A stretch of DNA of 60,360 bases, the filler included. It is 4 parts of 4 records of this genome, joined end to end, with 100 filler letters (N's around TTAATTAATTAA, not from the genome) between each part and the next. Parts side by side here need not be neighbours in the genome. Positions count along the whole stretch, not along the records: positions 41,858 to 54,656 come from SRR31156797_465; 3 more parts are not named here. One strand, 5' to 3'. This document shows, piece after piece, positions 40,408-60,360 of this stretch. A program made the position numbers and the translations under genes. Position 1 is the stretch's first letter. Each line of letters starts with the position of its first letter. The notes under the pieces are model-generated. The model did not search any database and was not told the origin of the DNA. It worked only from the letters and a program-made list of their open reading frames with translations.

Positions 40408-40408
40408 G

Positions 40409-41757: not shown

Positions 41758-41857
41758 NNNNNNNNNNNNNNNNNNNNNNNNNNNNNNNNNNNNNNNNNNN
41801 NTTAATTAATTAANNNNNNNNNNNNNNNNNNNNNNNNNNNNNNNNNNNNNNNNNNNN
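41758..41857. other. Artificial contig linker
   Basis: N44-TTAATTAATTAA-N44. Confidence 0.98.
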
Positions 41858-41903
41858 CACGGGGATTTTCAGTCCCCTGCTCTACCGGCTGAGCTATCTC
41901 GGC
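41858..41903 (-). tRNA. tRNA-Phe (GAA), 5' portion, truncated by contig edge
   Basis: Minus strand reads GCCGAGATAGCTCAGCCGGTAGAGCA-GGGGA-CTGAAAA-TCCCC-GTG. Upstream TTGACC-N17-TATATT promoter (41945-41917). Confidence 0.9.
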
Positions 41904-42032
41904 AACAGATTTGCGCAATATAGCGCCTAGGAAAGATTCGGTCAAGCATAAATTTCCAATAAATGACGTTATTCAACCAAATTGCCGTTTTCCATATTAT
42001 TTTTCCCATACCATTTTCAGGAACATTAACAA

Positions 42033-45000
42033 TTGCAAAAGAACCGTAACAACATAAGAAAAACCCTTCGCGGCCATTCTCATTCGGTCCACGCCGATAC
42101 ATCGCCGGATAAACACACATCCGAAGCATTGTCGCTGACTGAAAAAGAACTCCGATCCCTTGTCCCGCTGACCATGGGCAGAGATCGACATATCTTTCAT
42201 AGACGTCTCAATGCCATTTTTAAAAAAAGCAAGGATCAAACAACCGGGCGGAAATTCATGGCACAACTTGAACCCCTTAAAAAAAGGATCAAGGGGTCCA
42301 TGGCGGAAAAACTGCAGCGCTCAAAACATGCTCCATCCGTCTCTTTCCCAGAGAATCTCCCCATTACCGCAAAAAAAACTGAAATTATTGATGCCGTTCG
42401 AAAAAATCCGGTTGTCATTATTGCCGGCGACACGGGTTCGGGGAAAAGCACCCAGATTCCTAAAATGTGTCTTGCCGCCGGCCGGGGCATTGACGGCAAA
42501 ATTGCCTGTACCCAACCCCGTCGCATCGCCGCCACCACCATAGCCGGTCGAATTGCAGAGGAGTTGGGCGAAACCGTTGGCTCATCGGTGGGGTATAAGA
42601 TCCGATTCAAGGATCGCACCCGTAAACAGGGATACATCAAGGTGCTCACCGACGGTATGTTGCTGGCGGAGACGCAACAGGACCCACGACTCTACGATTA
42701 TGACACCATCATTGTTGATGAGGCCCACGAAAGAAGCCTCAACATTGATTTTATTTTAGGAATTCTGAAAAACCTGGCTAAGAAACGAAAAGATCTAAAA
42801 CTGATCATCACGTCCGCCACCATCGATACGGAAAAATTCTCCAAAAATTTCGGGAAAGCACCGGTGATTCAGGTATCCGGACGGCGATATCCGGTTTCGG
42901 TCCAATACCGGCCCGTTGACCCGGAGCTTCAGGAAAAAGGGGATATGACCTATGTGGATGGGGCCGTCAAAACCGTGGAGGAGATCTGCCATTCCGGGGC
43001 CTTCGGGGATATCCTGGTGTTCATGCCCACGGAGCGGGATATCCTTGAGACCTGTGAGAGGCTGGAAGGGCGCGGCCTCAAAAACGTCTCCCTATTGCCC
43101 CTGTTTGCCAGGCTGCCCGGCCCCCGGCAAGCCAGGGTTTTTAAACCCGCAAACAAGCGCAAAGTGATTGTATCCACCAACGTGGCGGAAACCTCCCTGA
43201 CCATTCCGGGTATCCGATACGTGGTGGACACGGGGCTCGCCAGGATCTCACGGTATCTCCCCCGAACCCGTTCCACCAGCCTGCCCATCAGCCCCATTTC
43301 CAGGAGCAGCGCGGATCAGCGAGAAGGTCGCTGCGGTCGTCTGGAAAACGGCGTCTGCATTCGGCTCTATTCAGAGGAGGACTACGCATCCCGGCAGGAA
43401 TTCACGGATCCCGAAATCCTCAGAAGCAACCTGGCGGAGGTCATCCTCCGCATGATTTCCCTGAAGCTGGGAAACATTTCACTCTTTCCATTCCTTGACA
43501 AACCCAACCCCAGGAGCATCAAAGACGGTTTCGACCTGCTGGTGGAACTGGGGGCCGTCATTCGAAAAAAAGGTGAACCTATCCTGACGCCCAGGGGCCG
43601 CATGATGGCCAAAATGCCCATTGATCCGAAAATCTCCCGCATGATCCTTGAAGCGGAAAGCAGGGGTTGCGTGTATGACGTGGCGGTTATCGCATCGGGC
43701 CTGAGCATTCAGGATCCCAGGGAGAGGCCCCTTGAAAAAGCGGCCCAGGCGGATCAGGTCCATGGACAATTCAGAGATGCGGGTTCTGATTTTATCACAC
43801 TGCTGAATATCTGGAACCAATATCACCGTTCCTTTAAGACCCTTAGAACCCAGAACAAAATGCGAAAGTTCTGTAAAGCGCATTTCCTTTCCTTCACCCG
43901 CATGCGGGAATGGCACCACATCCATGAACAGATCTCCAACATACTGAAATCCCAGGGTATCAGGAATGTAAATCAGCAGAACCGGGAGACCGTAAAAGAC
44001 CGTTATGCGGCCATCCACCAGTCGATTCTGAGCGGATATCTGTCCAACATCGCCATTAAAAAAGAAAAAAATATTTACCTGGCAGCCAGGGGAAGGGAAG
44101 CCATGCTTTTCCCCGGCTCCACCCTCTTCAACAAAAGTCCCGATTGGATCGTGGCGGTGGAAATGGTGAAAACATCCAGGCTTTTCGCCAGAACCGCCGC
44201 AAAAATAGATCCCGAATGGCTGGAATCCCTGGGCGGCAGCCTCTGTAAATCCATCCACTCCCATCCCCATTGGGAAAAGAAGGCGGGACAGGTTCGGGCC
44301 GTTGAACAGGTCAGCCTCTACGGTCTGATCATCATCCCAAACCGCCATGTCTCCTATGGGCCCATCGATCCGGTGGTATCCCATGAGATTTTCATCAGAT
44401 CCGCTTTGGTGGATGGAGAAATGAAGAAAAAGTTCGGTTTCCTCAACCATAACCGGGCCCTCGTTCTGGAGATCACCCAAATGGAGGAGAAAGTGCGACG
44501 GCGCGGCATCCGGGTCAGCGATGAGCGCATGGAATCATTTTATTCATCGCGGCTACCGGGCGTGTACGACATCCGCACTCTTGAGAAACAAATCAGAAAA
44601 CGCGGGGGCGATGATTTCCTTAAAATGACCCGATCCGACGTAATCGCCGAGGTTCCCGACCTGGAAGAGGTGGCCCAATATCCCGATGAAATGACCGTCG
44701 GAAACGGCGCACTCCGGTTCTCCTATAAATTCAAGCCCGGCAAACCGGATGACGGGGTCACCCTCAAGGTACCGCTGAATCAAGCCTCCGAAGTGTCGCC
44801 CCACCAACTGGACTGGGTGGTACCGGGGCTTTTCAAGGAAAAAATCACGGCCCTCATTAAAGGGTTGCCCAAACATTACCGCAAACAGCTTGTGCCCGTC
44901 TCCGGCACCGTGGAAATCATCCTGTGCGAAATGGAAAAATCCCGGGACCCGTTGATTTCAACCCTTGGCAGATTTATCTACCAACGCTTCGGGGTGGACA

Positions 45001-46064
45001 TTCCGGCGGCGGAATGGGCCGAGTCCCATATCCCCGAACACCTTCAAATGAGGGTTTCCATCAGGGACCATAAAAACCGTGAACTGAAATCCGCCAGGGA
45101 TGCTTCAATCCTGAACAGACTGCCGAAAATCGACGCAAATCAGACTGAAGAACAATCCAATGTTTGGCGAAAAGCAGAGGCTCACTGGGAAAAGCAAGGC
45201 ATCGTAAGGTGGAATTTCAAAACCCTGCCGGAAACCGTTTCCCTGACCCCACGCCTTACGGCCTTTCCCGCCCTTTCACCGGGTGAAAACAGTGTTGAAA
45301 TCCGCTTGTTCAAAACCCGGCCCCAAGCCCTTGAATGCCACAGGGGAGGCGTCCGGAAACTATTCATGCTCCACTTCAGAAAAGATCTGAAACTGCTTAA
45401 AAAAGACCTCAAAATACCCGCGCACTTATCTTCTAAAACCGTTGATTTCGGTGGACCGGGATCCGTGGAAAATGCCATGTTTGACACGCTTATGAGCCGC
45501 TTTTTTGATCGCAATATCCGAACGGAAACCGCATTTAGCAAAGCCGCTGAAGCCATTGCCCGTGAAATTTTCCCCACGGGCAAACGTTTAATGGAACTTA
45601 CAGGCCAGGTCCTTTCAAGCTACCACCACGCCACCCTGTTTATCCATCAGGTTGAGATAAAAAACAGAAACAACATGCCAGCGGCAGGCCTCTGCAAACG
45701 TCTTATGACGGAGATGGGGGCGCTGGTTCCCCGGGATTTCGTGGAACGGTACACAATGGAACGTCTGGTCCATCTCCCCCGTTATCTCAGGGCACTTGAA
45801 ATCAGGGTCGAACGCGGGGTCTATCATCCGGACAAAGATCGAGAAAAAGAGGCCCTCATTTTACCCCTCAAGGCGGCTCTCAAAAGAAATCTAACAAGCA
45901 TCACTTCGAGGGCCACCCTTGAAAAAAGGTGTGCTTTTGAAGAATTTTTCTGGATGGTTGAGGAGTATAAGGTCTCCGTCTTTGCACAGGAGCTGAAGAC
46001 TGCCATACCGGTTTCAGCCAAGCGGCTGGATGAAAAAATGCGGGAACTGGAACGGATGATTTGA
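42033..46064 (+). CDS. hrpA: ATP-dependent RNA helicase HrpA
   Basis: GDTGSGKST, TQPRRIAA, DEAH, SAT, TNVAETSLT, QREGRCGR, and C-terminal WMVEEYKVSVFAQEL. Exact start uncertain. Confidence 0.96.
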   Translation: MQKNRNNIRKTLRGHSHSVHADTSPDKHTSEALSLTEKELRSLVPLTMGRDRHIFHRRLNAIFKKSKDQTTGRKFMAQLEPLKKRIKGSMAEKLQRSKHAPSVSFPENLPITAKKTEIIDAVRKNPVVIIAGDTGSGKSTQIPKMCLAAGRGIDGKIACTQPRRIAATTIAGRIAEELGETVGSSVGYKIRFKDRTRKQGYIKVLTDGMLLAETQQDPRLYDYDTIIVDEAHERSLNIDFILGILKNLAKKRKDLKLIITSATIDTEKFSKNFGKAPVIQVSGRRYPVSVQYRPVDPELQEKGDMTYVDGAVKTVEEICHSGAFGDILVFMPTERDILETCERLEGRGLKNVSLLPLFARLPGPRQARVFKPANKRKVIVSTNVAETSLTIPGIRYVVDTGLARISRYLPRTRSTSLPISPISRSSADQREGRCGRLENGVCIRLYSEEDYASRQEFTDPEILRSNLAEVILRMISLKLGNISLFPFLDKPNPRSIKDGFDLLVELGAVIRKKGEPILTPRGRMMAKMPIDPKISRMILEAESRGCVYDVAVIASGLSIQDPRERPLEKAAQADQVHGQFRDAGSDFITLLNIWNQYHRSFKTLRTQNKMRKFCKAHFLSFTRMREWHHIHEQISNILKSQGIRNVNQQNRETVKDRYAAIHQSILSGYLSNIAIKKEKNIYLAARGREAMLFPGSTLFNKSPDWIVAVEMVKTSRLFARTAAKIDPEWLESLGGSLCKSIHSHPHWEKKAGQVRAVEQVSLYGLIIIPNRHVSYGPIDPVVSHEIFIRSALVDGEMKKKFGFLNHNRALVLEITQMEEKVRRRGIRVSDERMESFYSSRLPGVYDIRTLEKQIRKRGGDDFLKMTRSDVIAEVPDLEEVAQYPDEMTVGNGALRFSYKFKPGKPDDGVTLKVPLNQASEVSPHQLDWVVPGLFKEKITALIKGLPKHYRKQLVPVSGTVEIILCEMEKSRDPLISTLGRFIYQRFGVDIPAAEWAESHIPEHLQMRVSIRDHKNRELKSARDASILNRLPKIDANQTEEQSNVWRKAEAHWEKQGIVRWNFKTLPETVSLTPRLTAFPALSPGENSVEIRLFKTRPQALECHRGGVRKLFMLHFRKDLKLLKKDLKIPAHLSSKTVDFGGPGSVENAMFDTLMSRFFDRNIRTETAFSKAAEAIAREIFPTGKRLMELTGQVLSSYHHATLFIHQVEIKNRNNMPAAGLCKRLMTEMGALVPRDFVERYTMERLVHLPRYLRALEIRVERGVYHPDKDREKEALILPLKAALKRNLTSITSRATLEKRCAFEEFFWMVEEYKVSVFAQELKTAIPVSAKRLDEKMRELERMI

Positions 46065-46327
46065 ATGAACCCCCGGCCGACGGCTTCATCCCCCTCACTG
46101 ATTCGGTCGACTTCTTACCATCGGAAAGAGACTCTTAAAGGTAAGGCGGAAGATGAAAGCACTCTCCTTGCGGCCGGCACCGGAAGTCTTTCCTCCGGCG
46201 ACACTCCAAGGAATCGATCAAAAATCTTTGCAGATTGACAATTGGCGGTTATTGGTTTATGCATTCTTTCTTAGTCGATTCCGGAATTCCGGATCCAGCG
46301 CTTCCGAACCCCTTTTCAATTCCGGTT

Positions 46328-47080
46328 ATGGACCGAAAACACCCTGCCATACAGTGCGTCAGCCTTGAAAAGACCTACGGCGATCGGACCGTGCTTGGAA
46401 GTATCAACCTTGTGGTGGAAAGCGGCGATATTCTGGCCCTCGTGGGCTCCAACGGCGCAGGCAAGACCACCCTCATCAAAATCCTTGCGGGTCTGATTAT
46501 TCCCACAGGGGGCAAAGCCCTTGTGTGCGGATACGATATCATGAGAGATCCCATGCAGGCAAAAAAAAAGATCGGTTTTGTTCCATCGGAGGAGCGCAGC
46601 TTTTACTGGCGTTTGAGCGGCCGGCAAAATCTCAATTTCTTTGCCTCCCTTCACAATATCCACGGTAAAGAGCGTGATAAAAGCGTCAACGGGGCCCTTG
46701 AGGCTGTGGGCCTCGAAGACAAAGGGCACGTTCGCTTTAAGGAATACTCATCCGGCATGAAGCAGGCCCTGGGGATTGCCAGGGGCATCTTGCATAATCC
46801 ACAGGTCCTCCTGCTGGACGAACCCACCCGGAGCCTCAGTCCGGATATCGCGAAAAAGATCCGGGAACTCATGCAAAACAAGGTCCGGAATGAAGGAAAG
46901 ACCATTCTGATTTCCTCCCACAACCTGGAGGAAATAGAAAAACTGGCGGATCGTATGGCCATTATCCGCCACGGCGTTATCCAGGCCCATGGTTCCGTAA
47001 ACGAACTGAAAACGAAAGCAAAACTTCCGCAATCCACGGATCTGAACATCCTTTTCGAACATTTTACCCGTACTTGTTAA
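46328..47080 (+). CDS. ABC exporter ATP-binding protein
   Basis: GSNGAGKTT, YSSGM, LLLDEP, SSH. ORF extends back to 46235, but TTGACA there looks like a -35 element, so ATG 46328 is preferred. Confidence 0.92.
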   Translation: MDRKHPAIQCVSLEKTYGDRTVLGSINLVVESGDILALVGSNGAGKTTLIKILAGLIIPTGGKALVCGYDIMRDPMQAKKKIGFVPSEERSFYWRLSGRQNLNFFASLHNIHGKERDKSVNGALEAVGLEDKGHVRFKEYSSGMKQALGIARGILHNPQVLLLDEPTRSLSPDIAKKIRELMQNKVRNEGKTILISSHNLEEIEKLADRMAIIRHGVIQAHGSVNELKTKAKLPQSTDLNILFEHFTRTC

Positions 47081-47083
47081 TCC

Positions 47084-47926
47084 ATGGAATCCAGTCACCC
47101 ATTATCAAACCTCAAATATCAATGGGCAACCCTGTGGGCTTTTTTAAAACGGGATCTCCTGAACGAATTAAGCTACAAACTCTCCTTTTTGCTCCAATTG
47201 GTGGGAATCTTTCCATCGGTGCTCATGTTCTTTTTCCTCTCCCGCCTGGTGGGGAATACCATCTCAGGCCCCCTTGAACCTTACGGCGGCAGCTATTTCC
47301 CCTTTGTCCTCATCGGCATCGCCGTTCAAAACTACCTGACCCTGTCGCTGAGTAGATTTTCCGGCAATCTTCGGGAATCGCAACTCTCGGGCACCCTGGA
47401 GGCGGTCCTGGCAACCCCTGTTCGCCTCCCCTCTTTTCTCATGGGCTCCACCGCTTATAGCTTTGTCTTCAATGCCCTGCGCATCTTCGTCTATCTTGCG
47501 GTGGGCACTCTCCTGCTGGATGTCCATTTCAACTGGGCGCGACTCCCCGCAGCCCTCGGTGTCATCTGCCTCACCATCGCCGCCTTTTCCAGTCTGGGTA
47601 TATTATCCGCCAGCTTCATCATGCTCTTCAAAAGGGGGGATCCCGTCAACTGGGGCTTTAACGTCATATCGTGGCTGTTGGGCGGGGTCTACTATCCCGT
47701 CGGCATTCTTCCCCAATGGCTTCAGAAATGGGCGGATTTCATTCCCATGACCCATGCCCTGAAAGCACTCCGAATCATCCTTCTGACCGAAAATGAGCTT
47801 TCCTCACTTATGGGGTGCCTGATGGGACTCGGCCTCTGGAGCGTCATCGGGCTCCCGTTAAGTCTCTGCTGCTTTCGATATGCCCTGAACCGGGCCAGGA
47901 TGCAGGGAACGCTGGGGCACTATTAA
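47084..47926 (+). CDS. ABC-2 type permease
   Basis: About six TM helices. ESQLSGTLEAVLATP and GVYYPVGILPQWLQ...PMTHAL..LR. Confidence 0.9.
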   Translation: MESSHPLSNLKYQWATLWAFLKRDLLNELSYKLSFLLQLVGIFPSVLMFFFLSRLVGNTISGPLEPYGGSYFPFVLIGIAVQNYLTLSLSRFSGNLRESQLSGTLEAVLATPVRLPSFLMGSTAYSFVFNALRIFVYLAVGTLLLDVHFNWARLPAALGVICLTIAAFSSLGILSASFIMLFKRGDPVNWGFNVISWLLGGVYYPVGILPQWLQKWADFIPMTHALKALRIILLTENELSSLMGCLMGLGLWSVIGLPLSLCCFRYALNRARMQGTLGHY

Positions 47927-47936
47927 AGAACCGGAA

Positions 47937-48182
47937 CTAAAGGTCAATGAGTTGTTTAGTGCGAAGTTCTTCTAGACATCTTGCGACGTCATCCGAAAGA
48001 TCGTGGGCCGAATCCACCTGAAAATGGTTTCGCATTTCCTGCTCCATTTCCACTGAATTCCGACCGTTTTGGTGAAGGTGATACACCATTCGAGCGGTAG
48101 AATTGAGCACGTGAACCGAATCCTGTTCCGTGTCGTACACCATGAGTTCGGAATCCATTTCTTTGGTGATATGTCTTGTCAC
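47937..48182 (-). CDS. Standalone PqqD-family RiPP recognition element (RRE)
   Basis: ELMVYD...VHVLNSTARMVY...DDVARCLEELRTKQLI fits the PqqD pattern. GTG start with GGAG RBS. Confidence 0.85.
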   Translation of the reverse strand: MTRHITKEMDSELMVYDTEQDSVHVLNSTARMVYHLHQNGRNSVEMEQEMRNHFQVDSAHDLSDDVARCLEELRTKQLIDL

Positions 48183-48224
48183 TGTATTACTCCAATCAAA
48201 AAATTTTTCATCTACAGAACGGGG

Positions 48225-48791
48225 TCACATCCACATCCTGATCAAAAGCCGCTGGAGTGCTCTTCCGCCGACCGCCTCACCCCTGGCCATCCATTTAAAG
48301 ATGATAAGCGGGCGATTTCCCACACTCCGATGTTTGATCCGTTGAGCCATCCTCACGGCCTTGAATTTCCAAAAACCTGCAACGCCCAATGTTCGGTTTA
48401 ACAACCGCCATGGGAGGCGGTTCATCTGCAGAGCCGCATCCCCCCGGTAAAGGGTTTCCACCCTTCCCAGGAATGCTTCTCCATCAAAGCATCCCCATCC
48501 TGATAGGGCATCCCCTTTCTGCCAGAATATTGGACCTGTACTGCCCTGCTCCATTTTCAACAGGCGGTGAACCATAATACGGTCTCCCTGATAATAGGCA
48601 ACCATATCACCGGACCTGGCAGCCTCTATGCCCACCAGTTCTATCTTGACACTGTCCCCAGGCCGGATCAGGGGCATCATGCTCCCGGTGGCAATGGGCA
48701 GTGTGACGGTCTTCCCGGAAATTTTACACAGATCCAGGAAGGAGCGGGAAAAGCCTTTTCCTTCCATATGGGGGATATATTCACCCATCAT
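48225..48791 (-). CDS. S24/S26 family peptidase, no N-terminal TM
   Basis: TGSMMPLIRPGD (catalytic Ser), MVHRL, KGD, FLGRV. Start overlaps the C25 stop (ATGA). Confidence 0.82.
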   Translation of the reverse strand: MMGEYIPHMEGKGFSRSFLDLCKISGKTVTLPIATGSMMPLIRPGDSVKIELVGIEAARSGDMVAYYQGDRIMVHRLLKMEQGSTGPIFWQKGDALSGWGCFDGEAFLGRVETLYRGDAALQMNRLPWRLLNRTLGVAGFWKFKAVRMAQRIKHRSVGNRPLIIFKWMARGEAVGGRALQRLLIRMWM

Positions 48792-51700
48792 GGAACAACC
48801 CTCAGATTCAGAAACTTACCGGAGCCACTCTTGATAACAGGGTTTTTGATGCTGCTGGTGGGACCGCCTTTCTCGGTGAACGTCGAATTCCACCCGCCTT
48901 CAATGGTGATCTCTTTTCCCCCGTCCACCACGATTTCTTCATTGTAAACCCCTTGGGAAACTTGAATAACATCCGGGACAGGAGATCCAGCAATGGCCTC
49001 ATTGATCGTACCGCAACATGGGGTTTTTCCGCCGCAAACCTTATCGGCAGACACGTAGGCGGTTCCTGAAAAGGGCTCCAGCAGAACCGTGGCCGGATCT
49101 CCGAAAAAAGCCAGCGTTTGAATTGCATCAGAGGTGATACCCTTACCGTAAGCCGCTATTTTAGCCTGAGTCACCGCAGACCCCATAATCCCATTTTTTG
49201 ACTGGAAAATGGTTGAGAATAGTTCCTTGCCCAGAATCTCGTGCTCCCAAACATACCCCGAACCACTGGGTGCCTGAATACCAATTGTTCCCCGGTTTTC
49301 TCCGGCCATAAACGCCTCTGCCAAACAATAATAATAAGGTTGGCAAAAATAGCCGTTCAAACACGTCATGGCTACGAGAAAACTGAGAGTATTTCCATTG
49401 GACAGTAAATCAACATCATTTGTATAGTCGTTTCCTGCTGAACGTCGATTCGTAAAAAGGGTTTCGTCGGCCCACTTTGTGACGCTGCCATGCCCTAAAT
49501 ATTCCGTAATCAAAGCCCCTTGGTCCATATGTTGAATGATATGGCGGGTCGCCGTAGCGGTGTCTCCCCCGTATTTGCCAAGATAAACCTTTTGTACACC
49601 AAACCCTTCCGGTAGATAAGCAATCAGTTCGTTATTGACGTTCTCAAAAGAGCTTTCACCGTTGTCGGCAACCAACAAAACCTGTTCCGATCTATTGAGA
49701 GCGGCGGGTGAAAATCCCATAATTTTCGAGACCACCCCCGCCAACATGGCTGCGCTGGAACCGGGGATCCGGCCCACGCACATATCAGGCAAAATATCAG
49801 ACGCACCACCCATACAAACATACCAGTTATCCGATGGTACAAGATATTTTGAATACATAACATGTGGAGGAATTATATTCTTTCTACCCGTTTTAAGATA
49901 ATTCCGATAGTCCAAGGTAGCATCCCCCGCTAAAAGCAAATAGCCAGGTGCCGGCGCTGTCCAATTCTGATAGGCATATTCCAAAAACTCTTTAATGGCT
50001 GCAGGGTCAAATATGCCGTTATTAAATTCATTGTAAATATCTTCCACCGCCACCGCCTTTGATCGATATCCTTGTGATTGACGGAGTGCTACCAGTGGTG
50101 TCACCGAAGACAAAAACGCCTTTTTGGTAATGACAATCCAGTCTGCGCCGTTAGCGGTGGAATGAAGATCACTTGTTTGCCAAAGCACCAGGTTGGCGGG
50201 CTTTAAAACCGCATTATCACCGCCGATCCAGTAGCGCCTTTCCGTACTGGAAAGATCGGTGAAAACTGCCTTGTAACCACCTCCGTCAGAGACGACTGAA
50301 AAATCAGAGACGTGTGTGGGGGATAAGGCATCTGTAATGTCGTACAATATTATAGTCGGTGTGTTGAATCCTTTAACTGAAACTTGCCGAGGTCCCGCTC
50401 CGGTTACCCGAAAATCAAGTCGGTTCGAAACAGCCTCAAGACCACGCCAATAATCAACTTCAATCCAATTAAGATACGCACTATCTAAGGAAGCCGCATC
50501 TCCTACTAATTCAACCGTACAGGTATTGACACCATTGAAAAGAATGCTCGGTGAAACCGTCATTGTCTGAGTGAAGGTGTTCGCGCCGGTCCAGTAACCG
50601 TCACCGCCAACCGCAATTTCGATACCATTCCACCGAATCCTGGAATGGTGTTGGCCTGCCGCTGTACTGATCCCCTGAAAGCAGACCCGCACCGTTGCAT
50701 TTGATGCCGACGAAACAGGCGAATGTAGAAAGGCTGAGAAATCAATCGTAATCGGCGCCGTCATCTTTCTCCAAAAAAAGTAATCCTCGTCCGGAGCTCC
50801 GGGAGTCTGATACCAGAGGTAATCGTTTTCCTCAAAGTGCAGTGTTTCGTAGAAAAGAGTTACTGCTGTAGCGTTATCTGTTTTGGAATCATCGGCGGTC
50901 CCCAACCGCCGGCCTTCCTGCACACCCCATCTGAGCCAGTACACATTGGTATCGGTAAATTGCGTGTTCAAACTTTCGCCATAGAACTCTATAAAATCCC
51001 CGGAAGTAAATACCGATCCTGAGGCCACAACTCTTATCGCCAACTCCAATCCCCCGTTAAATATCTGAAACGTCAATGGGTTGATGGGTGCGGGTAGCCC
51101 TGCTGCCACAAGCTCCGCGTATGTCATTCGGTAAATGCCGTCCTCCCGGACTTCGATACGAATGCGTTGGGGCGACTGGGGAGATGCAATCGAAATATCT
51201 TCAGCTGACCCCTGAACATATTTGTCAGTATCCTTAACTGCAGAAGTCAAACCGATTGAAGAATTAATGAGTACGTTGCGTTTAATTGTATCAAACGTTT
51301 TTAGCGATATTGATTTGTTTTTATTGGATGAGTTATTCGGTAAGGTGTCTATATTCAGCGATTTTTCAAAGCTGATCTTCAATTCCATGTTGCGGCAGCA
51401 CCGCAACTCACTGGTCGCCGCATTCCATTGAAACGGATACACCTCAACCCGTGCAACCGGGGTGCCACGAAGATCACCCAGGCGATGAACGGTCACCTTC
51501 TTTTCCGGGTAAAACCCAGTCGCACCATACGCGGAAGAATCCTTAACAAAACGCTCTGTTCGCTGCTCTTCTACCGTCAGCACCATTTCCGGCACCGGAT
51601 AAATATTCAAACCTTCAACGGTTTCAGTGAAGGCATTTAAGATTTCAACCTTCAATGCCCCCGAATCCGGAACCTGCACCAGAAATCCCATGATGGGTAG

Positions 51701-51952
51701 CTCTGGATATCCGGTTCGGCTGGTTTTCCCCCAATCTGGAAAGATTACTCTGTCGAACGTACCACCATCTGTTGATATTTTTTGAATATGGGGCTTGGGT
51801 GCAGTCACCTGCACCGTAATTTCTCGGGAGCTGGAAGCGGTTACCTGTACCCAGGATGGGTTTTCAACTGCTCCTCTTGCAAACTCTCCGAATGAAAGGA
51901 CCGCCATCCATATGAGAAGAGCGAGAATCCAATGCCTCCTTTGATTTCTCAT
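48788..51952 (-). CDS. Secreted C25 (gingipain-like) cysteine peptidase with propeptide
   Basis: Signal peptide, propeptide-like GYPELP...VYPFQWN, IYNEFNNG..DPAAIKEFL, YLLLAGD, SDNWY, VGRIP, YLGHG (His), MTCLNG (Cys), FGDPA. GGGAGG RBS. Confidence 0.9.
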   Translation of the reverse strand: MRNQRRHWILALLIWMAVLSFGEFARGAVENPSWVQVTASSSREITVQVTAPKPHIQKISTDGGTFDRVIFPDWGKTSRTGYPELPIMGFLVQVPDSGALKVEILNAFTETVEGLNIYPVPEMVLTVEEQRTERFVKDSSAYGATGFYPEKKVTVHRLGDLRGTPVARVEVYPFQWNAATSELRCCRNMELKISFEKSLNIDTLPNNSSNKNKSISLKTFDTIKRNVLINSSIGLTSAVKDTDKYVQGSAEDISIASPQSPQRIRIEVREDGIYRMTYAELVAAGLPAPINPLTFQIFNGGLELAIRVVASGSVFTSGDFIEFYGESLNTQFTDTNVYWLRWGVQEGRRLGTADDSKTDNATAVTLFYETLHFEENDYLWYQTPGAPDEDYFFWRKMTAPITIDFSAFLHSPVSSASNATVRVCFQGISTAAGQHHSRIRWNGIEIAVGGDGYWTGANTFTQTMTVSPSILFNGVNTCTVELVGDAASLDSAYLNWIEVDYWRGLEAVSNRLDFRVTGAGPRQVSVKGFNTPTIILYDITDALSPTHVSDFSVVSDGGGYKAVFTDLSSTERRYWIGGDNAVLKPANLVLWQTSDLHSTANGADWIVITKKAFLSSVTPLVALRQSQGYRSKAVAVEDIYNEFNNGIFDPAAIKEFLEYAYQNWTAPAPGYLLLAGDATLDYRNYLKTGRKNIIPPHVMYSKYLVPSDNWYVCMGGASDILPDMCVGRIPGSSAAMLAGVVSKIMGFSPAALNRSEQVLLVADNGESSFENVNNELIAYLPEGFGVQKVYLGKYGGDTATATRHIIQHMDQGALITEYLGHGSVTKWADETLFTNRRSAGNDYTNDVDLLSNGNTLSFLVAMTCLNGYFCQPYYYCLAEAFMAGENRGTIGIQAPSGSGYVWEHEILGKELFSTIFQSKNGIMGSAVTQAKIAAYGKGITSDAIQTLAFFGDPATVLLEPFSGTAYVSADKVCGGKTPCCGTINEAIAGSPVPDVIQVSQGVYNEEIVVDGGKEITIEGGWNSTFTEKGGPTSSIKNPVIKSGSGKFLNLRVVP

Positions 51953-51979
51953 AAAAATAGCCTCCCGGGTAAAAACAGC

Positions 51980-53107
51980 TTAAACGCCGGATCCAGTAGC
52001 TTTGACCGTATCCATAATCAGATCAACAGTCTCTTCAAGTTCACCCACCCGAAGTCGCCAAGCGAACGCCCCCCCCAAAAGCGTGGCACACTCCCATAGC
52101 CTGGCGGTACATCCCTCAGCAGGCAAATAAGTGTCGACAGCTTCCATATGCCGCAAAAGGTTGAAGGCCGCTTCATGGGTAGGGATTGATTCCATCACTG
52201 GTTTGCGCCTGAAATCCGGTTGTGCCCGATCCGATCTAAAAACGCTCTTTATGGCCGATCTGTGCAGGGATATCTGTTCGCGGATTTCCCCGGTCAAACC
52301 CAATTTTTTCGGATACCGAATCCATACTTCCTGACTCCCCTGTCCCACCATATCGATCTCCACGCCCGAAAACGATCGAAGCGCGCCCAGTAGAGCACCT
52401 CCCGAACCATTCTTCAGGAAAATGTGGAACTGCTGATCTCCAGAATTGCAGTTCATGTCATCCAGGCACATGACCCAACCAACGGGACATGACTTTAGCC
52501 CAAATAAGCTGCCGGGGAGTTGCTCCAGAGCAACGGATGTTTTATCATCCCATCGCAACGGCTCTTTTCCCGCACTCGATTGAACCAATCGTGGTGTTCT
52601 GGGAAATGGGTGTGCTCTGCGGCTAATTTTGTGAATGGGGCACGTGTCATCAGACATGAACCGGAATCCCCTTTTCAAGAGTTCGAACACCAGCGTCGTC
52701 TTTCCGGCCCCCGGATGTCCTGCCAGAATAAGGGCGGAACCATTGTATTCGACTACGCCTGCATGCAGAAACATAAAATCCTCTATCTCTAAAAAGACTG
52801 CATTAATAATTTGCAGCAGGCTCCAATTGGAAGGTGTGTGGTGATCCGACTGGGATTGGTACTGGATAACCGGATTTAAGGATTTTAGGTCAGTATTGGT
52901 ACCGATCCGGGTTCTTTCAAGATAAGGACGTCCTTTTTGAAGGATAACGGAAAAACCGAGCCCATGTCCATGTCTAGACGACGGAACCCGAAACCACCCA
53001 TAGGCCTCATCGAATCGAGAAATAAATTCAGTTGAATCCGAGGTAAGCGTTAGAAAAAAATCCAGAATTCGGTAATGAGCTTCATACAATTTGGAGATCT
53101 CCTTCAT
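51980..53107 (-). CDS. HPr kinase-related P-loop kinase
   Basis: FLHAGVV...ILAGHPGAGKTTL...FMSDD...HPFPR. Real start is likely ATG 53107 or TTG 53089 (AAGGAG RBS, overlapping the rSAM stop) rather than 53284. Confidence 0.8.
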   Translation of the reverse strand: MKEISKLYEAHYRILDFFLTLTSDSTEFISRFDEAYGWFRVPSSRHGHGLGFSVILQKGRPYLERTRIGTNTDLKSLNPVIQYQSQSDHHTPSNWSLLQIINAVFLEIEDFMFLHAGVVEYNGSALILAGHPGAGKTTLVFELLKRGFRFMSDDTCPIHKISRRAHPFPRTPRLVQSSAGKEPLRWDDKTSVALEQLPGSLFGLKSCPVGWVMCLDDMNCNSGDQQFHIFLKNGSGGALLGALRSFSGVEIDMVGQGSQEVWIRYPKKLGLTGEIREQISLHRSAIKSVFRSDRAQPDFRRKPVMESIPTHEAAFNLLRHMEAVDTYLPAEGCTARLWECATLLGGAFAWRLRVGELEETVDLIMDTVKATGSGV

Positions 53108-54470
53108 CCGGCAATGAAAGAATTCGGTCAAAAGCCTTCCGGTATTGGTTTCGGCGATAATCGCAGAAATCATCGGTATCCCAAATGGTACCTTTATGCT
53201 CCAAAGCCATCGCCATACATCCTCCCTGGCAAAGATTCCGTGGCGGACATGAAGCGCATCGGTCGATCGTAAACCGCCGATCAAGGAGTGCCTGGCAGAT
53301 TTTTTTCAGGGAACTGCCACCACAGATTTGTTCCAATGTTTGCTCGTAGACACTGCCGAGATGAAAATCCGGCCTCATCATAATTGAACAAGGAAAAACG
53401 CCTCCCTGGGTATCCACAGCCAGGAGTTGTCCCATGGGGCACCAAATGGCATCACCGGTCCGATCGGGGATCGCCAACATGAACCCATTTAACCCGCAAC
53501 TTATATCGGTAGCTTCTCCTCGGTTTTCTTTCTTGACAAAGTCATAAAACCGTTCGATTTCCTCCCTGCCCAGCCTTTCACCGATATCACGCCAGCAGCC
53601 GATAGCATTACCCTGTTTGCGAAGTGGAAGAAACCGCGCCAAGGGTACACCCATCTCTTCGGCCAAGCGAACAATCTGGGGAAGATCGTCAATGTTGGAC
53701 CGCATAACCGTTGTCGCAATGTTGAGTCGATCACCTAATCCAGCCCTCTGCAGTAATCCCAGGGCCCGGATTGCCTTTATAAAACTTCCTTTTCCCCTAA
53801 TGGCATCATGAATAGGGGGTGCAGATCCATCGATGCTCACCTGAACCTTAACCCCGTGATCCGCAAGAAATGCCGCCAAATCCTGATCCACCAAGATACC
53901 ATTGGTAAGCAACTGAACTTCCAAGGCATCCGCAGCGTGCGCAATAATTTTTCGAATTTCCGGATAAAGCAGCGGTTCCCCGCCACTTAATGTAACGGAA
54001 CGCCCACCCAAAATTTTTAGCTGGTCTATTAGGCCGTAAACAACTTCATAAGGTAGAGACGTGACCGCTGGATGATCGAAACGACTGCCAGCGTAGCAGT
54101 GAACACAGGAGAGATTACAGCATTTTGTCAGTTGAAGAAAAAGCGACCTCATTTTAGGTAGTCGGTGGCTCGCTTTCAGGTCTTCGGAATCCAAAAATCC
54201 TGCTGTTAAAAGCGATTTCTGGACGCTTAAAACATCCTTCAGCGCAACATCCGGTGAAATATTGTACTTACGGCAGCAATATTCCACAACCGTTTTCAGG
54301 ACATCCCCACCAAGGAGCTTGGAAGAGATGAACTGTGCTGTTGAATTCATTACAAGCCAACGGGGAGCAAAGGGATGAAATAGTATTTGTTTTTTCCCAA
54401 AACCGTAGAAACAGACTTGTCTTTTATTTGATGCTTTCAAAAGAGAATCTTCTTTTGCTTTTTCAGACAA
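53082..54470 (-). CDS. Radical SAM/SPASM peptide maturase with N-terminal RRE (PqqD-like) domain
   Basis: RRE-like MNSTAQFI...YNISPDVALKDV. CNLSCVHC (CxxxCxxC), SGGEP, VSIDG. SPASM cysteines WCPMG...VFPC...CASC...LCQGGC...FC. Confidence 0.92.
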   Translation of the reverse strand: MSEKAKEDSLLKASNKRQVCFYGFGKKQILFHPFAPRWLVMNSTAQFISSKLLGGDVLKTVVEYCCRKYNISPDVALKDVLSVQKSLLTAGFLDSEDLKASHRLPKMRSLFLQLTKCCNLSCVHCYAGSRFDHPAVTSLPYEVVYGLIDQLKILGGRSVTLSGGEPLLYPEIRKIIAHAADALEVQLLTNGILVDQDLAAFLADHGVKVQVSIDGSAPPIHDAIRGKGSFIKAIRALGLLQRAGLGDRLNIATTVMRSNIDDLPQIVRLAEEMGVPLARFLPLRKQGNAIGCWRDIGERLGREEIERFYDFVKKENRGEATDISCGLNGFMLAIPDRTGDAIWCPMGQLLAVDTQGGVFPCSIMMRPDFHLGSVYEQTLEQICGGSSLKKICQALLDRRFTIDRCASCPPRNLCQGGCMAMALEHKGTIWDTDDFCDYRRNQYRKAFDRILSLPDEGDLQIV

Positions 54471-54656
54471 AAACCATTAATGACGTCCAAGAAACAATTG
54501 CTTAACGAACAAACTCCGATAGGCTTCTAACCTCCTGCGCCCAAATGGATTATGTAAAGAATTTTGTGCTGGGCTTCAAATCTCCGGGATGAATCTTTAA
54601 CATCTGCAGATTGACAGAACTGAGCTAACAAATCATTATCCTGGACCAGCATCACC

Positions 54657-54756
54657 NNNNNNNNNNNNNNNNNNNNNNNNNNNNNNNNNNNNNNNNNNNN
54701 TTAATTAATTAANNNNNNNNNNNNNNNNNNNNNNNNNNNNNNNNNNNNNNNNNNNN
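54657..54756. other. Artificial contig linker
   Basis: N44-TTAATTAATTAA-N44. Confidence 0.98.
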
Positions 54757-55509
54757 AATTTCAGCCATATTTTCAAAATAAGGTTTTATAATATCATTTG
54801 CTTTTAACTGATTGATTTGATTATTTATCTCTTCAAAATGTTTTTTTCCTGTTGCCCAGTATATTCTAATACCTGGAGTTTTATAAAGTTTAAGCCAGTT
54901 TTTTAATACTGCATCATTTATACTCTTAGCTCCAAGACTTCCTCCGGTAATTAATAGCATTCTCTCACCATCTTGAAGTTTTAATTTTTTTCTTTCTTCT
55001 TCTCTATCCAAATAATAGAACTTATCTCTAAGAGGATTTCCAAATACTTCTAATTTATTTTGATATTTAATCGGTGATTCTTCAAAAGTTTTATCAAAAG
55101 CTAAAAAAGTTTTTTTTGTAAATTTATAGAAAAATTTATTAGCTGAACCATATTTACAATTTTGCTCTTGTAGATAGATTTTTTTTCGTGTTAAAAATCC
55201 AGCTAAAATAACAGGAACCATTGTATAATTCCCAAAACCAACAACTGCATCAGGTTTTTCTTTTAATATCAGAAGTAATGATTTAATAAATGATTTAAAC
55301 AGTCTATATATTGATTTGAAATTATTAAATGGTTTGATATCAAGTCCTACAAATCGGTATCCTGCTTCAGGAACAATCTCCTTTTCCATTCTATATTTAC
55401 TTCCAACAAAAATTATATCTACTTCTTTCTTTTTAAACTCTTCTGCAACAGAAAGTGCAGGATATATATGACCACCAGTCCCACCGGTTGTTAATATCAC
55501 TTTTTTCAT
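54757..55509 (-). CDS. murG: MurG glycosyltransferase (truncated by contig edge)
   Basis: TTGGTGGHIYPAL, GFGNY, QEQN, GNPLR, GGSLGA. Confidence 0.96.
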
Positions 55510-55528
55510 TTTAATTCCCCATTTACAA

Positions 55529-56860
55529 TTATTTGGTCAGAAATTTTTCTACAATAAGTTTTTTGAATATTTTACCACGAACTTCATAATTTTTAAATTG
55601 ATCAAAACTTGAATGTGCCGGTGAAAATAAAACTATTTTATTTTGCAATTCATTTTTATTCATATATAAATCATCAACTACATTTTCTATTACTTCTAAA
55701 TTTTTAACTCTATCTTTCGAATATCCTGAAGTCAACAATAATTTTTCAAGCATATCCGCAGTTTCACCTATTAAAAATACTTTTTCGACTTTTTTAGCTA
55801 TACTATCAACCAAAGGTTTTAGATCAACTTTTTTATCTTTTCCTCCACAAATTAAGATTAAATCTTTAGGAAAAGCATTTACAGCTTTAATTGTTGAGTC
55901 TACATTTGTTCCTTTTGAATCATTTATAAATAAAGTGTTCTCCAGTTCTAAAAACTCTTCCATTCTGTGCTCTAGAGGTTTTGTTGTATAAAGAAACTCT
56001 CTTATTTTTGCTTCATTAATTTCTAACTTTCTAGCTATAGCAGTAATAAAAAGTATATTTTGTAAATTATGAACTCCTTTTAGAGCCAGTTTCTTAGTTT
56101 CTAAAAGTTTATTCTCACTGTTCTCTTTCTTTTCAACTAAATATCCGTCTTTAACAAAATAATCAGCTTCTTGACTATTTTTCAATGTTATATTTATTCT
56201 ATTTTTTATTTTTTCGATTCTTTTCAATATTTCCTGATCATCGATATTTACAATAAAAAAGTTATTCTCTATATTTTTTATAATATTAAATTTAGAGTCA
56301 TAATATTGCTCAATTGAATCATATCTATTTAAGTGATCAGGAGATAAATTAATTACTAAAGAGATATATGCTTTAAACTCTTTAATATTCTCCAATTGAT
56401 AAGAACTCAGCTCTATAACAATATAATCTAATTTTGTATTATCAAGAACAAGTTTAGAAAATGGAACTCCTATATTTCCTGCAAACTCAGCTCTATAACC
56501 TGAATAAGATAATAAATCCCTGATTTTGGAAGTTGTTGTTGTTTTACCGTTTGTTCCTGTTACAGCTATGATTTTTATATCTTTATTCATATATCTATAT
56601 GCTAACTCTATCTCATCTATTAATTCAATATTTTTATTTTTTTTAACTGTATTAACAAGTTCATTATATGGAATACCCGGACTTTTAATAAATAGTTCAG
56701 TATTCTCTAAATTCTTTAAAGCCCATTCAGAGTTTTTTATATTTCCATCTGTTTCTGCAGCTTTATCATCAACCATAACAACTTGATAAGATTTTTGCTT
56801 CAGCAATTCATATGCAGATCTTCCGCTAACTCCTGCACCATAAACCATTGCCTTTTTCAT
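55529..56860 (-). CDS. murD: UDP-MurNAc-L-Ala--D-Glu ligase
   Basis: KSPGIP, VTGTNGKTTT, ELSSYQL, PDHLNRY, NDSKGTN, SSFDQFKNYEVRG. Confidence 0.96.
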   Translation of the reverse strand: MKKAMVYGAGVSGRSAYELLKQKSYQVVMVDDKAAETDGNIKNSEWALKNLENTELFIKSPGIPYNELVNTVKKNKNIELIDEIELAYRYMNKDIKIIAVTGTNGKTTTTSKIRDLLSYSGYRAEFAGNIGVPFSKLVLDNTKLDYIVIELSSYQLENIKEFKAYISLVINLSPDHLNRYDSIEQYYDSKFNIIKNIENNFFIVNIDDQEILKRIEKIKNRINITLKNSQEADYFVKDGYLVEKKENSENKLLETKKLALKGVHNLQNILFITAIARKLEINEAKIREFLYTTKPLEHRMEEFLELENTLFINDSKGTNVDSTIKAVNAFPKDLILICGGKDKKVDLKPLVDSIAKKVEKVFLIGETADMLEKLLLTSGYSKDRVKNLEVIENVVDDLYMNKNELQNKIVLFSPAHSSFDQFKNYEVRGKIFKKLIVEKFLTK

Positions 56861-56873
56861 AAGTATCTCCTAT

Positions 56874-57962
56874 CTATCTTAATTTAAGAATAAGTAATCC
56901 CATAATTCCAAACATAATTGAAGTTATCCAGAATCTGGCTGTTACTTTTGTTTCAGGAAGTCCTTTTAATTCAAAATGATGGTGTATCGGTGCCATTTTA
57001 AATACTCTTTTTCCTCTCTTCTTAAAAGACCATACCTGAATTATTACTGATAATGCTTCTACTACGAACACAAAACCAACAACTCCAAGTAAAATCTCTT
57101 GTTTTAGAAAAATCGAAATAGTAGCTAAAATTCCACCAAGTGCTAAAGAGCCTGTATCTCCCATGAATATTTGAGCAGGGTAAAAGTTATACCACAAAAA
57201 TCCAAGTCCAGATCCCAGCATACTCGCCAAGAATACAGTTAATTCTCCAACACCTTCTATATAGTAAAGATTTAAATATTTACTCCATACAACATTTCCT
57301 GTGAAATAGGCTACAATTGCCATTACAAGCGATACAACCATAACAGGTACAATTACAAGCCCGTCAAGTCCATCTGTAATATTTACAGCATTTGAGCTAC
57401 CTATAATAACAAATGCAATAAATACTAACATAAGTATTCCACCGACATATAGATATGAATCCTTTAAAATAGGATTAACTATTGCAAAATTAAGCTTTCC
57501 TTCCAATAAAGGAAATTTGCTTATAAAACTCCAAATTAAAACTGCAACAACTAATTGACCTTTTACTTTTTTTCTTCCTGACAAACCTTTTTTGTTAACA
57601 GTAAATTTCTTAAAATCATCAACAAAACCTATGGCTCCAAGTAAAAGAGCTGATAACATTGTCATTAACACAAATCTATTTGTTAAGTTTCCTGCGATAA
57701 GATTCGTCATAATTATTGAAGTCAGGATCAACACGCCACCCATTGTAGGTGTTCCTTTTTTAGAATAATGTGTTTTTGGTCCTGATTCTCTTATATCATC
57801 ACCGATTTTTTTTCTTCTTAAAAAATTAATAAAAGGTTTACCTGCAAAAATTACAATTAAATATGATAAAAAGAATGCAATCATTGCTCTAATTGATATG
57901 TACCTAAATAATCTGGTTATTGAAATTTTCTCTATAAGCTCTAAATAAATCCAATATAACAC
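56874..57962 (-). CDS. mraY: Phospho-MurNAc-pentapeptide transferase
   Basis: KKGTPTMGG, NAVNITDGLDGL, FMGDTGSLALG, MAPIHHHFE. Confidence 0.97.
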   Translation of the reverse strand: MLYWIYLELIEKISITRLFRYISIRAMIAFFLSYLIVIFAGKPFINFLRRKKIGDDIRESGPKTHYSKKGTPTMGGVLILTSIIMTNLIAGNLTNRFVLMTMLSALLLGAIGFVDDFKKFTVNKKGLSGRKKVKGQLVVAVLIWSFISKFPLLEGKLNFAIVNPILKDSYLYVGGILMLVFIAFVIIGSSNAVNITDGLDGLVIVPVMVVSLVMAIVAYFTGNVVWSKYLNLYYIEGVGELTVFLASMLGSGLGFLWYNFYPAQIFMGDTGSLALGGILATISIFLKQEILLGVVGFVFVVEALSVIIQVWSFKKRGKRVFKMAPIHHHFELKGLPETKVTARFWITSIMFGIMGLLILKLR

Positions 57963-58010
57963 AGTATCTCCTCTTTTCTGAATAAATTGAAATTTAAAAA
58001 AATCAATTTA

Positions 58011-59300: not shown

Positions 59301-59485
59301 AATTTTAATTATCTTCCATTTTCTTAAAGTTATTTTTCAAAAGCCCCCACATTATATCATTTTTTTGCTCATTCAGCAAACATTGCATTAACAAGAAATA
59401 TATTATTTTTCAAGCGTTTGAGGCTTCATATCAAGTATTTTTTGTTTGTTATAAAATTCAAACTCTCAGAGGTCATTAAAATTAA

Positions 59486-60031: not shown

Positions 60032-60091
60032 CTAAATTTACTCCTTAATATTCGTTTTATTCTCAGCAAGTATAATTATAAGATAATATAC

Positions 60092-60121: not shown

Positions 60122-60146
60122 ATTATAAATTTAAATTTTTCCTATT

Positions 60147-60359: not shown

Positions 60360-60360
60360 A

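Follow-up and report, generated by a model that had tools for sequence, protein, structure and literature searches.

Gene organization of the cassette

We analyzed a 60,360-base stretch of DNA (the window) made up of four contigs, and focused on a cluster of seven genes on its third contig that appears to encode a peptide-modification pathway of the RiPP type (for peptides that are made on ribosomes and then modified post-translationally). Five tightly packed genes on the minus strand code for a radical S-adenosylmethionine (SAM) enzyme with a SPASM domain and a fused RiPP recognition element (RRE), an HprK-like kinase, a C25 peptidase, an S24/S26-like peptidase and a PqqD protein. These are met by a convergent pair of ATP-binding cassette (ABC) transporter genes on the plus strand. 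The genes are as follows, with ORF denoting an open reading frame.

53082-54470, minus strand: radical SAM/SPASM enzyme with a PqqD-like RRE; a 462-residue ORF starting from TTG
51980-53107, minus strand: HprK-like P-loop kinase; the ORF is open to 53284 and its probable start is the ATG at 53107
48788-51952, minus strand: C25 (gingipain/PorU-like) cysteine peptidase; 1054 residues, predicted to be secreted
48225-48791, minus strand: S24/S26-fold peptidase of the Ser-His type; 188 residues, no N-terminal membrane anchor
47937-48182, minus strand: stand-alone PqqD-family RRE protein; 81 residues, Pfam PqqD 27.0 bits (cut-off 23.4)
47084-47926, plus strand: ABC-2 permease, convergent on the PqqD gene; ABC2_membrane 61.6 bits
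46328-47080, plus strand: ABC transporter ATPase (DrrA-like); ATG at 46328, ORF from TTG at 46235; ABC_tran 101.3 bits

A first-pass annotation made from the sequence alone had described five co-oriented, tightly coupled genes, and both the coordinates and the junctions bear this out. The kinase frame has its first ATG at 53107, 26 nt upstream of where the radical SAM stop codon ends, so the two genes overlap as that annotation had stated, by 26 nt and not as a 4-nt ATGA. The kinase stop codon is separated from the C25 ATG by 27 nt that contain GGGAGG, the C25 TGA overlaps the start of the S24/S26-like gene as ATGA, and 42 nt separate the latter gene from the PqqD start. The PqqD stop codon is 10 nt from that of the convergent permease. 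Position 46328, which had been given as the start of the locus, corresponds to the ATG of the ATPase gene within the ORF at 46235-47080. All seven genes are intact. This arrangement is more than chance; the same genes recur beside orthologous radical SAM genes in other phyla.

Conserved features of the encoded proteins

The radical SAM enzyme matches Pfam Radical_SAM (residues 114-269, 87.6 bits), SPASM (347-409, 29.9 bits) and PqqD (29-93, 28.4 bits), all above their cut-offs, and the CxxxCxxC cysteines C118, C122 and C125 as well as seven C-terminal cysteines are invariant among 35 sequences. The protein thereby has the Radical_SAM domain, CxxxCxxC motif, SPASM domain and RRE that characterize RRE-dependent peptide maturases. 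Its best NCBIfam matches are MftC, ScmF and StsB, and it misses the cut-off of every family; for example, it scores 138.9 bits against mycofactocin MftC (TIGR03962), for which the cut-off is 265. About 250 homologues were found at E<1e-20 with 35-57% identity, and those with a named source come from Thermodesulfobacteriota, Ca. Magnetomoraceae and Acidobacteriota metagenome-assembled genomes (MAGs).

The kinase matches HprK_rel_A (TIGR04352) at E 1.5e-15 with 57 bits against a cut-off of 200, a match that covers only profile positions 4-156 of 280. The P-loop residues G-K-T-T are retained in 33/33, 33/33, 29/33 and 33/33 orthologues, respectively, and Asp212 in 31/33. A profile of 23 kinase sequences matches HPr kinase structures, among them 3tqf_A (E 1.8e-5) and 1ko7_A (E 6.3e-5), with E-values between 1.8e-5 and 7e-4, the matched segment being some 50-70 residues that surround the P-loop.

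The C25 protein is recognized by Pfam Peptidase_C25 (264.6 bits, cut-off 23) and Propeptide_C25 (89.9 bits), and its match to the PorU model (NF033707) spans residues 262-960 and reaches 238.5 bits, below the cut-off of 420. His821 and Cys864 occupy the catalytic positions in an alignment to RgpB (1cvr_A), and the His is retained by 23/24 orthologues and the Cys by 21/24, which places the protein in peptidase family C25. Its N-terminus is hydrophobic and signal-like, a kind of start that is also present in most orthologues, and on this basis the protein is predicted to be exported. The window protein ends in a 94-residue extension without a Pfam match. Two orthologues, in loci L011 (13264-17220) and L016 (11800-14805), have a C-terminus in which a Gly-rich run leads to a Cys with a short hydrophobic tail behind it; this looks like a sorting or anchoring signal.

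In the S24/S26-like peptidase, Ser37 is kept in 18/20, His75 in 20/20 and Asp94 in 19/20 sequences. Its AlphaFold2 model (predicted local distance difference test score, pLDDT, of 86) has two long C-terminal helices and lacks an N-terminal membrane segment. Foldseek matches of this model include the LexA C-terminal domain (E 1.3e-4), human SEC11 in 7p2q_A (E 1.1e-3; SEC11A/C), SipA and SpsB. Model and conserved residues together point to a fold of clan SF in which a Ser is the nucleophile and is paired with a general base. The stand-alone PqqD protein scores 29.2 bits against PqqD_rel_X (TIGR04353), short of the cut-off of 35, matches the lasso PqqD model at E 1.1e-4, and is 56% identical to the PqqD protein of the related locus L092 (14-row alignment A2).

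Both ABC proteins score above the cut-offs for ABC_tran and ABC2_membrane and so make up an ABC-2 exporter; against the drrA subfamily the ATPase reaches 222 bits (cut-off 312). The ATPase is 69-71% identical to the ATPases adjoining the cassettes of L092 and L094, and the permease is 80-82% identical to the permeases of these two loci, which are likewise convergent after PqqD. Overall, the alignments indicate that the catalytic residues are conserved in all four cassette enzymes. The domain names given in the first-pass annotation were recovered by hidden Markov model (HMM) search with Pfam and NCBIfam in agreement, although Hpr_kinase_C and Peptidase_S24 stay below their curated cut-offs.

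The five genes are conserved together

We explored the conservation of the cassette in loci drawn from one genome per species (80 loci), from metagenomes (13 loci) and from a search with the kinase (6 loci), each scored with the window's proteins. Loci were divided by identity of their radical SAM protein to that of the window into those of at least 36% (n=57, 29 of them at least 12 kb long) and those below 36% (n=41). The occurrence of each component in the first class is given below.

Precursor: 38/57 loci; 25/29 loci of at least 12 kb
Kinase: 37/57 loci; 25/29 loci of at least 12 kb
C25 peptidase: 33/57 loci; 25/29 loci of at least 12 kb
S24/S26-like peptidase: 29/57 loci; 18/29 loci of at least 12 kb
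PqqD protein: 18/57 loci; 16/29 loci of at least 12 kb
PF14907 nucleotidyltransferase: 14/57 loci; 12/29 loci of at least 12 kb
Orthologous ABC pair: 6/57 loci; 5/29 loci of at least 12 kb

Next to the more distant radical SAM genes the kinase was present in only 1/41 loci, C25 in 0/41 (at the chosen threshold) and the precursor in 2/41 (L050 and L053). The kinase, C25 and S24/S26-like genes had been proposed to be conserved together with the radical SAM gene, and this pattern supports that proposal. Likewise, the exporter that had been noted beside the operon is not peculiar to this locus, as orthologous ABC-2 pairs recur beside relatives' cassettes. In many lineages the C25 gene overlaps the kinase gene or directly adjoins it. 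The five genes form one conserved unit. No other family was common to more than 4/45 clustered sources. The relatives are labeled as Thermodesulfobacteriota, Acidobacteriota (including Aminicenantes and Holophagaceae), Phycisphaerales and Myxococcota, and all of them are MAGs.

There are four long loci without C25. The contigs of L026 and L032 end just past the kinase, the radical SAM gene of L046 is fragmentary, and L012 has a shorter C25-like ORF. Both L046 (10185-11134) and L047 (10001-11161), from MAGs labeled 'delta proteobacterium', have the radical SAM orthologue in pieces and lack the kinase, C25 and an intact precursor, and they probably represent decayed cassettes. Loci L050 and L053, whose radical SAM proteins are 30-32% identical to that of the window, each contain several C25-like ORFs and two precursor copies (14427-14588 and 17027-17215 in L050; 14568-14663 and 16074-16169 in L053) that have a single Cys and a common C-terminal D-F-Y. 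ORFs of about 480-500 residues beside several relatives' cassettes were considered as a further cassette component and rejected, as they are mutually unrelated. They code for histidine kinases, a mannose-1-phosphate guanylyltransferase, a methyl-accepting chemotaxis protein, CHASE2 proteins and an oxidoreductase, and some are antisense shadows of the radical SAM gene that arose from greedy ORF choice.

A putative precursor peptide family upstream of the radical SAM gene

Clustering of small ORFs around the cassettes gave one family, with 32 ORFs in 31/45 sources, located directly upstream of the radical SAM gene, 30-120 nt ahead of its start. The same family was seen by a pattern scan and in the closest metagenome loci. 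The first-pass annotation had anticipated a short precursor ORF in syntenic loci, and such an ORF is indeed present in 25/29 of the long related loci. The precursors have 40-60 residues and consist of a lasso-like leader, a near-invariant junction and a variable core. Specifically, the leader reads Y-x-x-P-x-I followed by T-Y-T-S-E-E-I-L-E-x-I, the junction is G-P-A-x-(A/T)-Cys-(Ser/Thr), and the core is short and variable, usually with a second Cys. Y23, G41, P42, A43 and C46 are invariant in an alignment of 20 sequences, the consensus of which is Y-x-P-P-K-I-x-T-Y-T-S-x-E-I-L-E-x-I-G-P-A-Q-A-C-S-P-x-P-C. A fixed N-terminal part followed by a variable C-terminal part is the usual leader and core anatomy.

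A profile search of 1.84 billion representative sequences recovered 559 precursors at E<=0.001, of which 88 were at E<=1e-10, and nearly all have 40-80 residues. Among 147 parsed sequences the residue before the Cys position (-1) is Ala in 103 and Thr in 37, the +1 residue is Cys in 136, the +2 residue is Ser or Thr in 113, and a second Cys is present in 103/136. Counted from the Cys onward, the C-terminal part is 11 residues long at the median (range 5 to 45). The cores have no conserved C-terminal Ser. Curated family models gave no match to the precursors, apart from a weak match of one of them to the lasso precursor model (E 0.0089, 16 bits, cut-off 33).

In L009 (6753-7550) an S24/S26-like ORF runs in frame into the precursor without a stop codon, and in the proteins P0178, P0218 and P0220 (383-671 residues) the precursor sequence stands at the end, after a hydrophobic stretch and a basic run. 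Both arrangements may be natural fusions or gene-calling artifacts.

The L092 PqqD protein and its own precursor were also modeled as a complex, which scored 0.48 while the best of three controls scored 0.01. At least 94% of contacts are common to the runs, and the pLDDT of the partner is at least 56. The mark applied to such scores is reached by 51/78 solved complexes and by 2/108 mismatched pairs, and scores of 0.60 or less that reach it account for 5/78 solved complexes and for all 4 passing mismatches (of 180). The model is thus weak support for leader binding, and since RRE-leader complexes have already been solved, its pass may reflect likeness to these.

The end of the contig and the upstream ORF

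The window is made up as follows.

1-26981: contig 1, GC 0.48
27082-41757: contig 2, GC 0.31
41858-54656: contig 3, the cassette contig, 12,799 bp, GC 0.50
54757-60360: contig 4, GC 0.28
26982-27081, 41758-41857 and 54657-54756: three artificial joints, each N44-TTAATTAATTAA-N44
54527-54655, minus strand: open-ended ORF with 42 visible codons that ends 57 nt upstream of the radical SAM start, in the position of the relatives' precursor

As the contigs were artificially concatenated, neighborhood across the joints carries no meaning. The cassette lies entirely on contig 3, and 54656, previously given as the end of the locus, is the end of that contig; since 54657-54756 is a joint, any DNA past it belongs to a different contig. 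Contig 3 stops 186 bp upstream of the radical SAM gene. The probable source run, X1, contains an identical 12,799-bp contig that ends at the identical base, and its final 30 bases (54627-54656) are common to two further contigs of 3457 bp and 731 bp, one of which then diverges from the window sequence. This indicates a branch in the assembly, located within the upstream ORF, as expected with two alleles or two paralogous copies. A small share turned up in run X2, with 0.06 of words and a single 241-base piece that has 7 differences; run X3 gave nothing.

On the contig of the window copy no precursor is recognizable. The ORF at 54527-54655 was rejected as a canonical precursor, having no precursor HMM match and not being among the best-scoring frames of the window. 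The S24/S26-like gene precedes the precursor in the closest relatives, and the ORF was also considered as the C-terminus of such a gene and rejected; it scores -2.4 bits with the corresponding HMM, within the range of 500 shuffles. Local alignment to S24/S26-like C-termini and precursors gave a best z of 2.7, with 4/200 shuffles as good. The precursor may lie beyond the contig end or elsewhere in the genome, or the ORF could itself be a divergent precursor.

Two other features lie on the cassette contig. At its start there is a transfer RNA (tRNA) fragment (41858-41903, minus strand; Rfam tRNA, model positions 1-45, its 3' end cut by the contig start), of which 39 nt are present at 97% in all five searched genomes of the genus of the complete genome G001. 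This could mark an island boundary or simply reflect tRNA conservation. The second feature is an HrpA-type helicase gene (42033-46064, plus strand; DUF3418 536.7 bits). HrpA is not conserved beside relatives' cassettes and was treated as an unrelated neighbor.

Origin of the cassette contig

Positions 1-20000 of the window are 99% identical to G001. The cassette contig has no match in this genome except for the 39 nt of tRNA, and HrpA was looked for and not found in G001, G002 and G004, which belong to one genus. Kinase orthologues are present in 0/13 genomes of the G001 family and in 4/401 genomes sampled from the phylum, all four being of 6-9 Mb. All 41/41 genomes related to the nominal organism have radical SAM/SPASM genes, the best of which is 31% identical to that of the cassette, indicating that none of these genomes has an orthologue. 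The low-GC contigs (27082-41757 and 54757-60360) carry the housekeeping genes gyrA, asd, hemE and murD-mraY-murF, and their GyrA shares only 52% identity with the G001 protein. Given the 99% match of positions 1-20000 to the same genome, the assembly mixes at least two organisms. In tetranucleotide composition, the two halves of contig 1 correlate at 0.90, contig 1 and the cassette contig at about 0.75, and the cassette contig and the low-GC contigs at 0.34. Either the cassette contig is an island specific to the strain, or a further organism is its source.

Comparison with known systems

The cassette resembles the clusters for phosphorylated and phosphoglycosylated lasso peptides (paeninodin, pseudomycoidin; the 'HPr-rel-A system'). 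Passages of PMC8498205 describe HPr-kinase homologues that phosphorylate lasso precursors, a nucleotidyltransferase that attaches hexoses to the phosphate so placed, and leader-binding RRE proteins of the B1 type. The cassette shares with these clusters a Y-x-x-P-x-(L/I) leader, a stand-alone PqqD RRE and an HPr-kinase homologue, together with an ABC exporter and, in part of the loci, the PF14907 nucleotidyltransferase. The lasso combination of an RRE and a YxxPxL-type leader is therefore present, the leader being seen in the relatives' precursors and not in the window. However, the cassette differs in having the RRE-fused radical SAM/SPASM enzyme and the S24/S26-fold and C25 peptidases, and in lacking the lasso cyclase and B2 protease; a domain search of all genes on the contig found neither the asparagine-synthetase-like cyclase nor the transglutaminase-like B2 protease. 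The kinase and PqqD protein also miss the HprK_rel_A (57 of 200 bits) and PqqD_rel_X (29.2 of 35 bits) cut-offs, so that the cassette cannot be counted as an HPr-rel-A member.

The SynChlorMet cassette likewise combines radical SAM/SPASM and HprK-like proteins, and ScmF and ScmE are among the best matches of the radical SAM enzyme and ScmC is a weak match of the kinase. The first-pass annotation had suggested a possible SynChlorMet-type variant. By NCBIfam cut-offs the cassette is not a member of that family, as the scores for ScmF (TIGR04251, 122.6 of 400 bits), ScmE (TIGR04250, 113.5 of 400) and ScmC (TIGR04249, 23 of 125) all fall far below the equivalog cut-offs. There is also one radical SAM gene here as opposed to two there, and neither C25 nor an S24/S26-like protein appears among the names of that cassette's components, by which names alone the two were compared.

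The thioether-forming radical SAM/SPASM RiPP systems (sactipeptides, ranthipeptides) and MftC share with the cassette enzyme the N-terminal RRE, the CxxxCxxC motif, the cysteines for SPASM auxiliary clusters and short cores with Cys, but none of these families' cut-offs is reached. To our knowledge, a kinase, a C25 peptidase and an S24/S26-like peptidase are not part of the sactipeptide, ranthipeptide or mycofactocin pathways. Note that the C-terminus of MftA is conserved, unlike that of the precursors described here. With PorU and the gingipains the C25 protein has in common the PorU match over residues 262-960, a gingipain-like propeptide and the catalytic His/Cys pair. It differs from PorU in its score (238.5 of 420 bits), in labeled hosts that are not Bacteroidota, and in being encoded inside a peptide-modification operon. 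The S24/S26-like protein shares the Ser-His(-Asp) residues and clan SF fold of soluble S26 leader peptidases (the Ni-SOD maturation protease) and Sec11/SipW-type signal peptidases, and the L092 copy weakly matches sod_Ni_protease and SipW. It differs in that it has no N-terminal membrane anchor, has two long C-terminal helices, and misses all curated cut-offs.

A search of full-text literature, in which subscription-only papers and supplements lay outside, returned lasso reviews and irrelevant papers only, with no description of this gene combination; the 'C25' in PMC5682303 is a cysteine number and not a peptidase. The earlier statement that no characterized cluster corresponds to this one therefore stands, with all curated equivalog cut-offs missed and no literature description found.

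Proposed pathway and alternative explanations

Judged from sequence, the locus is probably one copy of a widespread, uncharacterized RiPP-type cassette whose 5' end was cut off by the assembly, and in which a small peptide with Cys would be modified, trimmed and exported and then meet C25 outside the cytoplasm. The protein families and conserved residues suggest that the leader would be held by the RRE domain fused to the radical SAM enzyme and by the stand-alone PqqD protein. The radical SAM/SPASM enzyme would then modify the core, acting at the invariant Cys or starting from it, most likely to form a thioether-type crosslink, and the HprK-like kinase would phosphorylate a hydroxyl side chain, the best candidate for which is the Ser or Thr after the Cys. 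Where present, the PF14907 nucleotidyltransferase may further decorate the phosphate. The soluble Ser-His peptidase would cut off the leader after A-x-A/T, a junction that fits the -3/-1 rule favored by signal peptidases. The product would be pumped out by the ABC-2 exporter, and C25, exported by the Sec route, may trim, ligate or cyclize it outside the cytoplasm, activities that are possible given about 700 residues of homology to the sortase PorU.

A bolder form of this proposal, which we consider unlikely, is that of a new RiPP class in which a lasso-type toolkit (YxxPxI leader, PqqD, HPr-kinase homologue and PF14907) has been recombined with a radical SAM/SPASM enzyme, and in which a PorU-like C25 transpeptidase would work on the phosphopeptide after its export, either cyclizing it or joining it to an acceptor in the envelope.

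Several observations weigh against the proposed pathway. The kinase reaches only 28.5 bits with Hpr_kinase_C (PF07475; cut-off 33.3), and the S24/S26-like protein is below the cut-offs of both sigpep_I_arch (TIGR02228; 29.2 bits, cut-off 51.85) and Peptidase_S24 (PF00717; 19.6 bits, cut-off 23.3). A search of all frames of the 60-kb window with the precursor HMM found no recognizable precursor, and the upstream ORF has no homologue of near or longer length in a collection of 5.8 billion proteins. The counts for PqqD and the S24/S26-like peptidase hinge on the chosen bit-score thresholds. Some loci are duplicates or near-duplicates (L014 is the same as L097, L091 is close to L092 and L010 to L098), and related genomes are not independent. 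The ABC pair occurs in only 5/29 long loci, which leaves the route of a cytoplasmic peptide to a secreted C25 unexplained. The locus with the closest radical SAM relative (L089, 58% identity) has the S24/S26-like gene, precursor and radical SAM gene with no kinase or C25 downstream. Finally, the characterized lasso kinases treated in those passages of PMC8498205 target a C-terminal Ser, which is not conserved in these cores.

Downstream of its radical SAM gene, the L089 locus (4988-8397) instead encodes a DUF7948/beta-propeller protein and IPTL-CTERM proteins.

The main rival to an exported natural product is that the peptide is C25's own partner, that is, a radical SAM-crosslinked subunit, a cofactor-bearing piece, an activator or an inhibitor. 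One model for this is quinohemoprotein amine dehydrogenase, whose small subunit receives its crosslinks from a radical SAM enzyme and goes through proteolytic trimming and export by an ABC transporter; another is provided by secreted cysteine proteases with co-encoded inhibitors. Such a partnership would fit the linkage of C25 to the radical SAM gene, which is as tight as that of the precursor (25/29 long loci each), the frequent translational coupling of C25 to the kinase, the presence of at least two C25 paralogues and two precursors in some loci (L050, L053, L025, L072 and L018), and the scarcity of the exporter (5/29 long loci). However, with a median of 11 residues the cores are short, and they vary greatly, which is typical of diversifying products rather than of an enzyme subunit, and L089 and L012 retain the precursor and radical SAM gene without a full C25. 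On balance we regard this explanation as rather improbable.

Ranking behind it is the explanation that the window copy is incomplete or decaying and has no substrate gene of its own, perhaps on a foreign or mis-binned contig, so that no product would be made in the organism for which the assembly is named. The lack of a canonical precursor in the 60-kb window points this way, as does an upstream ORF only 57 nt from the radical SAM start where relatives have the precursor. The absence of the contig from G001 except for 39 nt of tRNA, the failure to find HrpA in G001, G002 and G004, the distribution of kinase orthologues (0/13 in the family, 4/401 in the phylum) and the mixture of at least two organisms in the window are also in its favor. 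Decay is nevertheless at odds with seven intact genes and conserved catalytic residues, and because the contig ends at an assembly-graph branch the precursor may lie beyond it or elsewhere, or the upstream ORF could be a divergent precursor.

That the locus is a variant cluster for a phosphorylated, paeninodin-like lasso peptide we regard as highly improbable. The Y-x-x-P-x-I leader, the weak match of one precursor to the lasso model (E 0.0089), and the presence of a PqqD RRE, an HprK-like kinase, PF14907 (12/29 long loci) and an ABC exporter, which constitute the accessory set ascribed to phosphorylated lasso clusters in the passages cited above, all resemble such a cluster. Yet a cyclase and B2 protease are absent on the contig, no further family is common to more than 4/45 sources that could supply them in relatives, and a radical SAM/SPASM enzyme takes the central place instead.

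Significance of the cassette

Taken together, conserved sequence features identify the cassette as a real, uncharacterized RRE-guided radical SAM peptide pathway with an undescribed combination of enzymes and a newly delimited precursor family. Pathways of this type are a main source of new peptide chemistry, and we know of no case in which radical SAM, protein-kinase-like, signal-peptidase-like and gingipain-like enzymes act jointly. The cassette spans several phyla of mostly uncultured anaerobes, and its precursor family is large, combining a leader that stays fixed with a hypervariable core that contains Cys. If the bolder proposal of a C25 transpeptidase were true, bacterial RiPP maturation would gain its first example of a sortase-like clan CD step. 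The definition of the precursor enables reconstitution of the pathway and makes the role of a secreted C25 peptidase in a peptide pathway directly testable.

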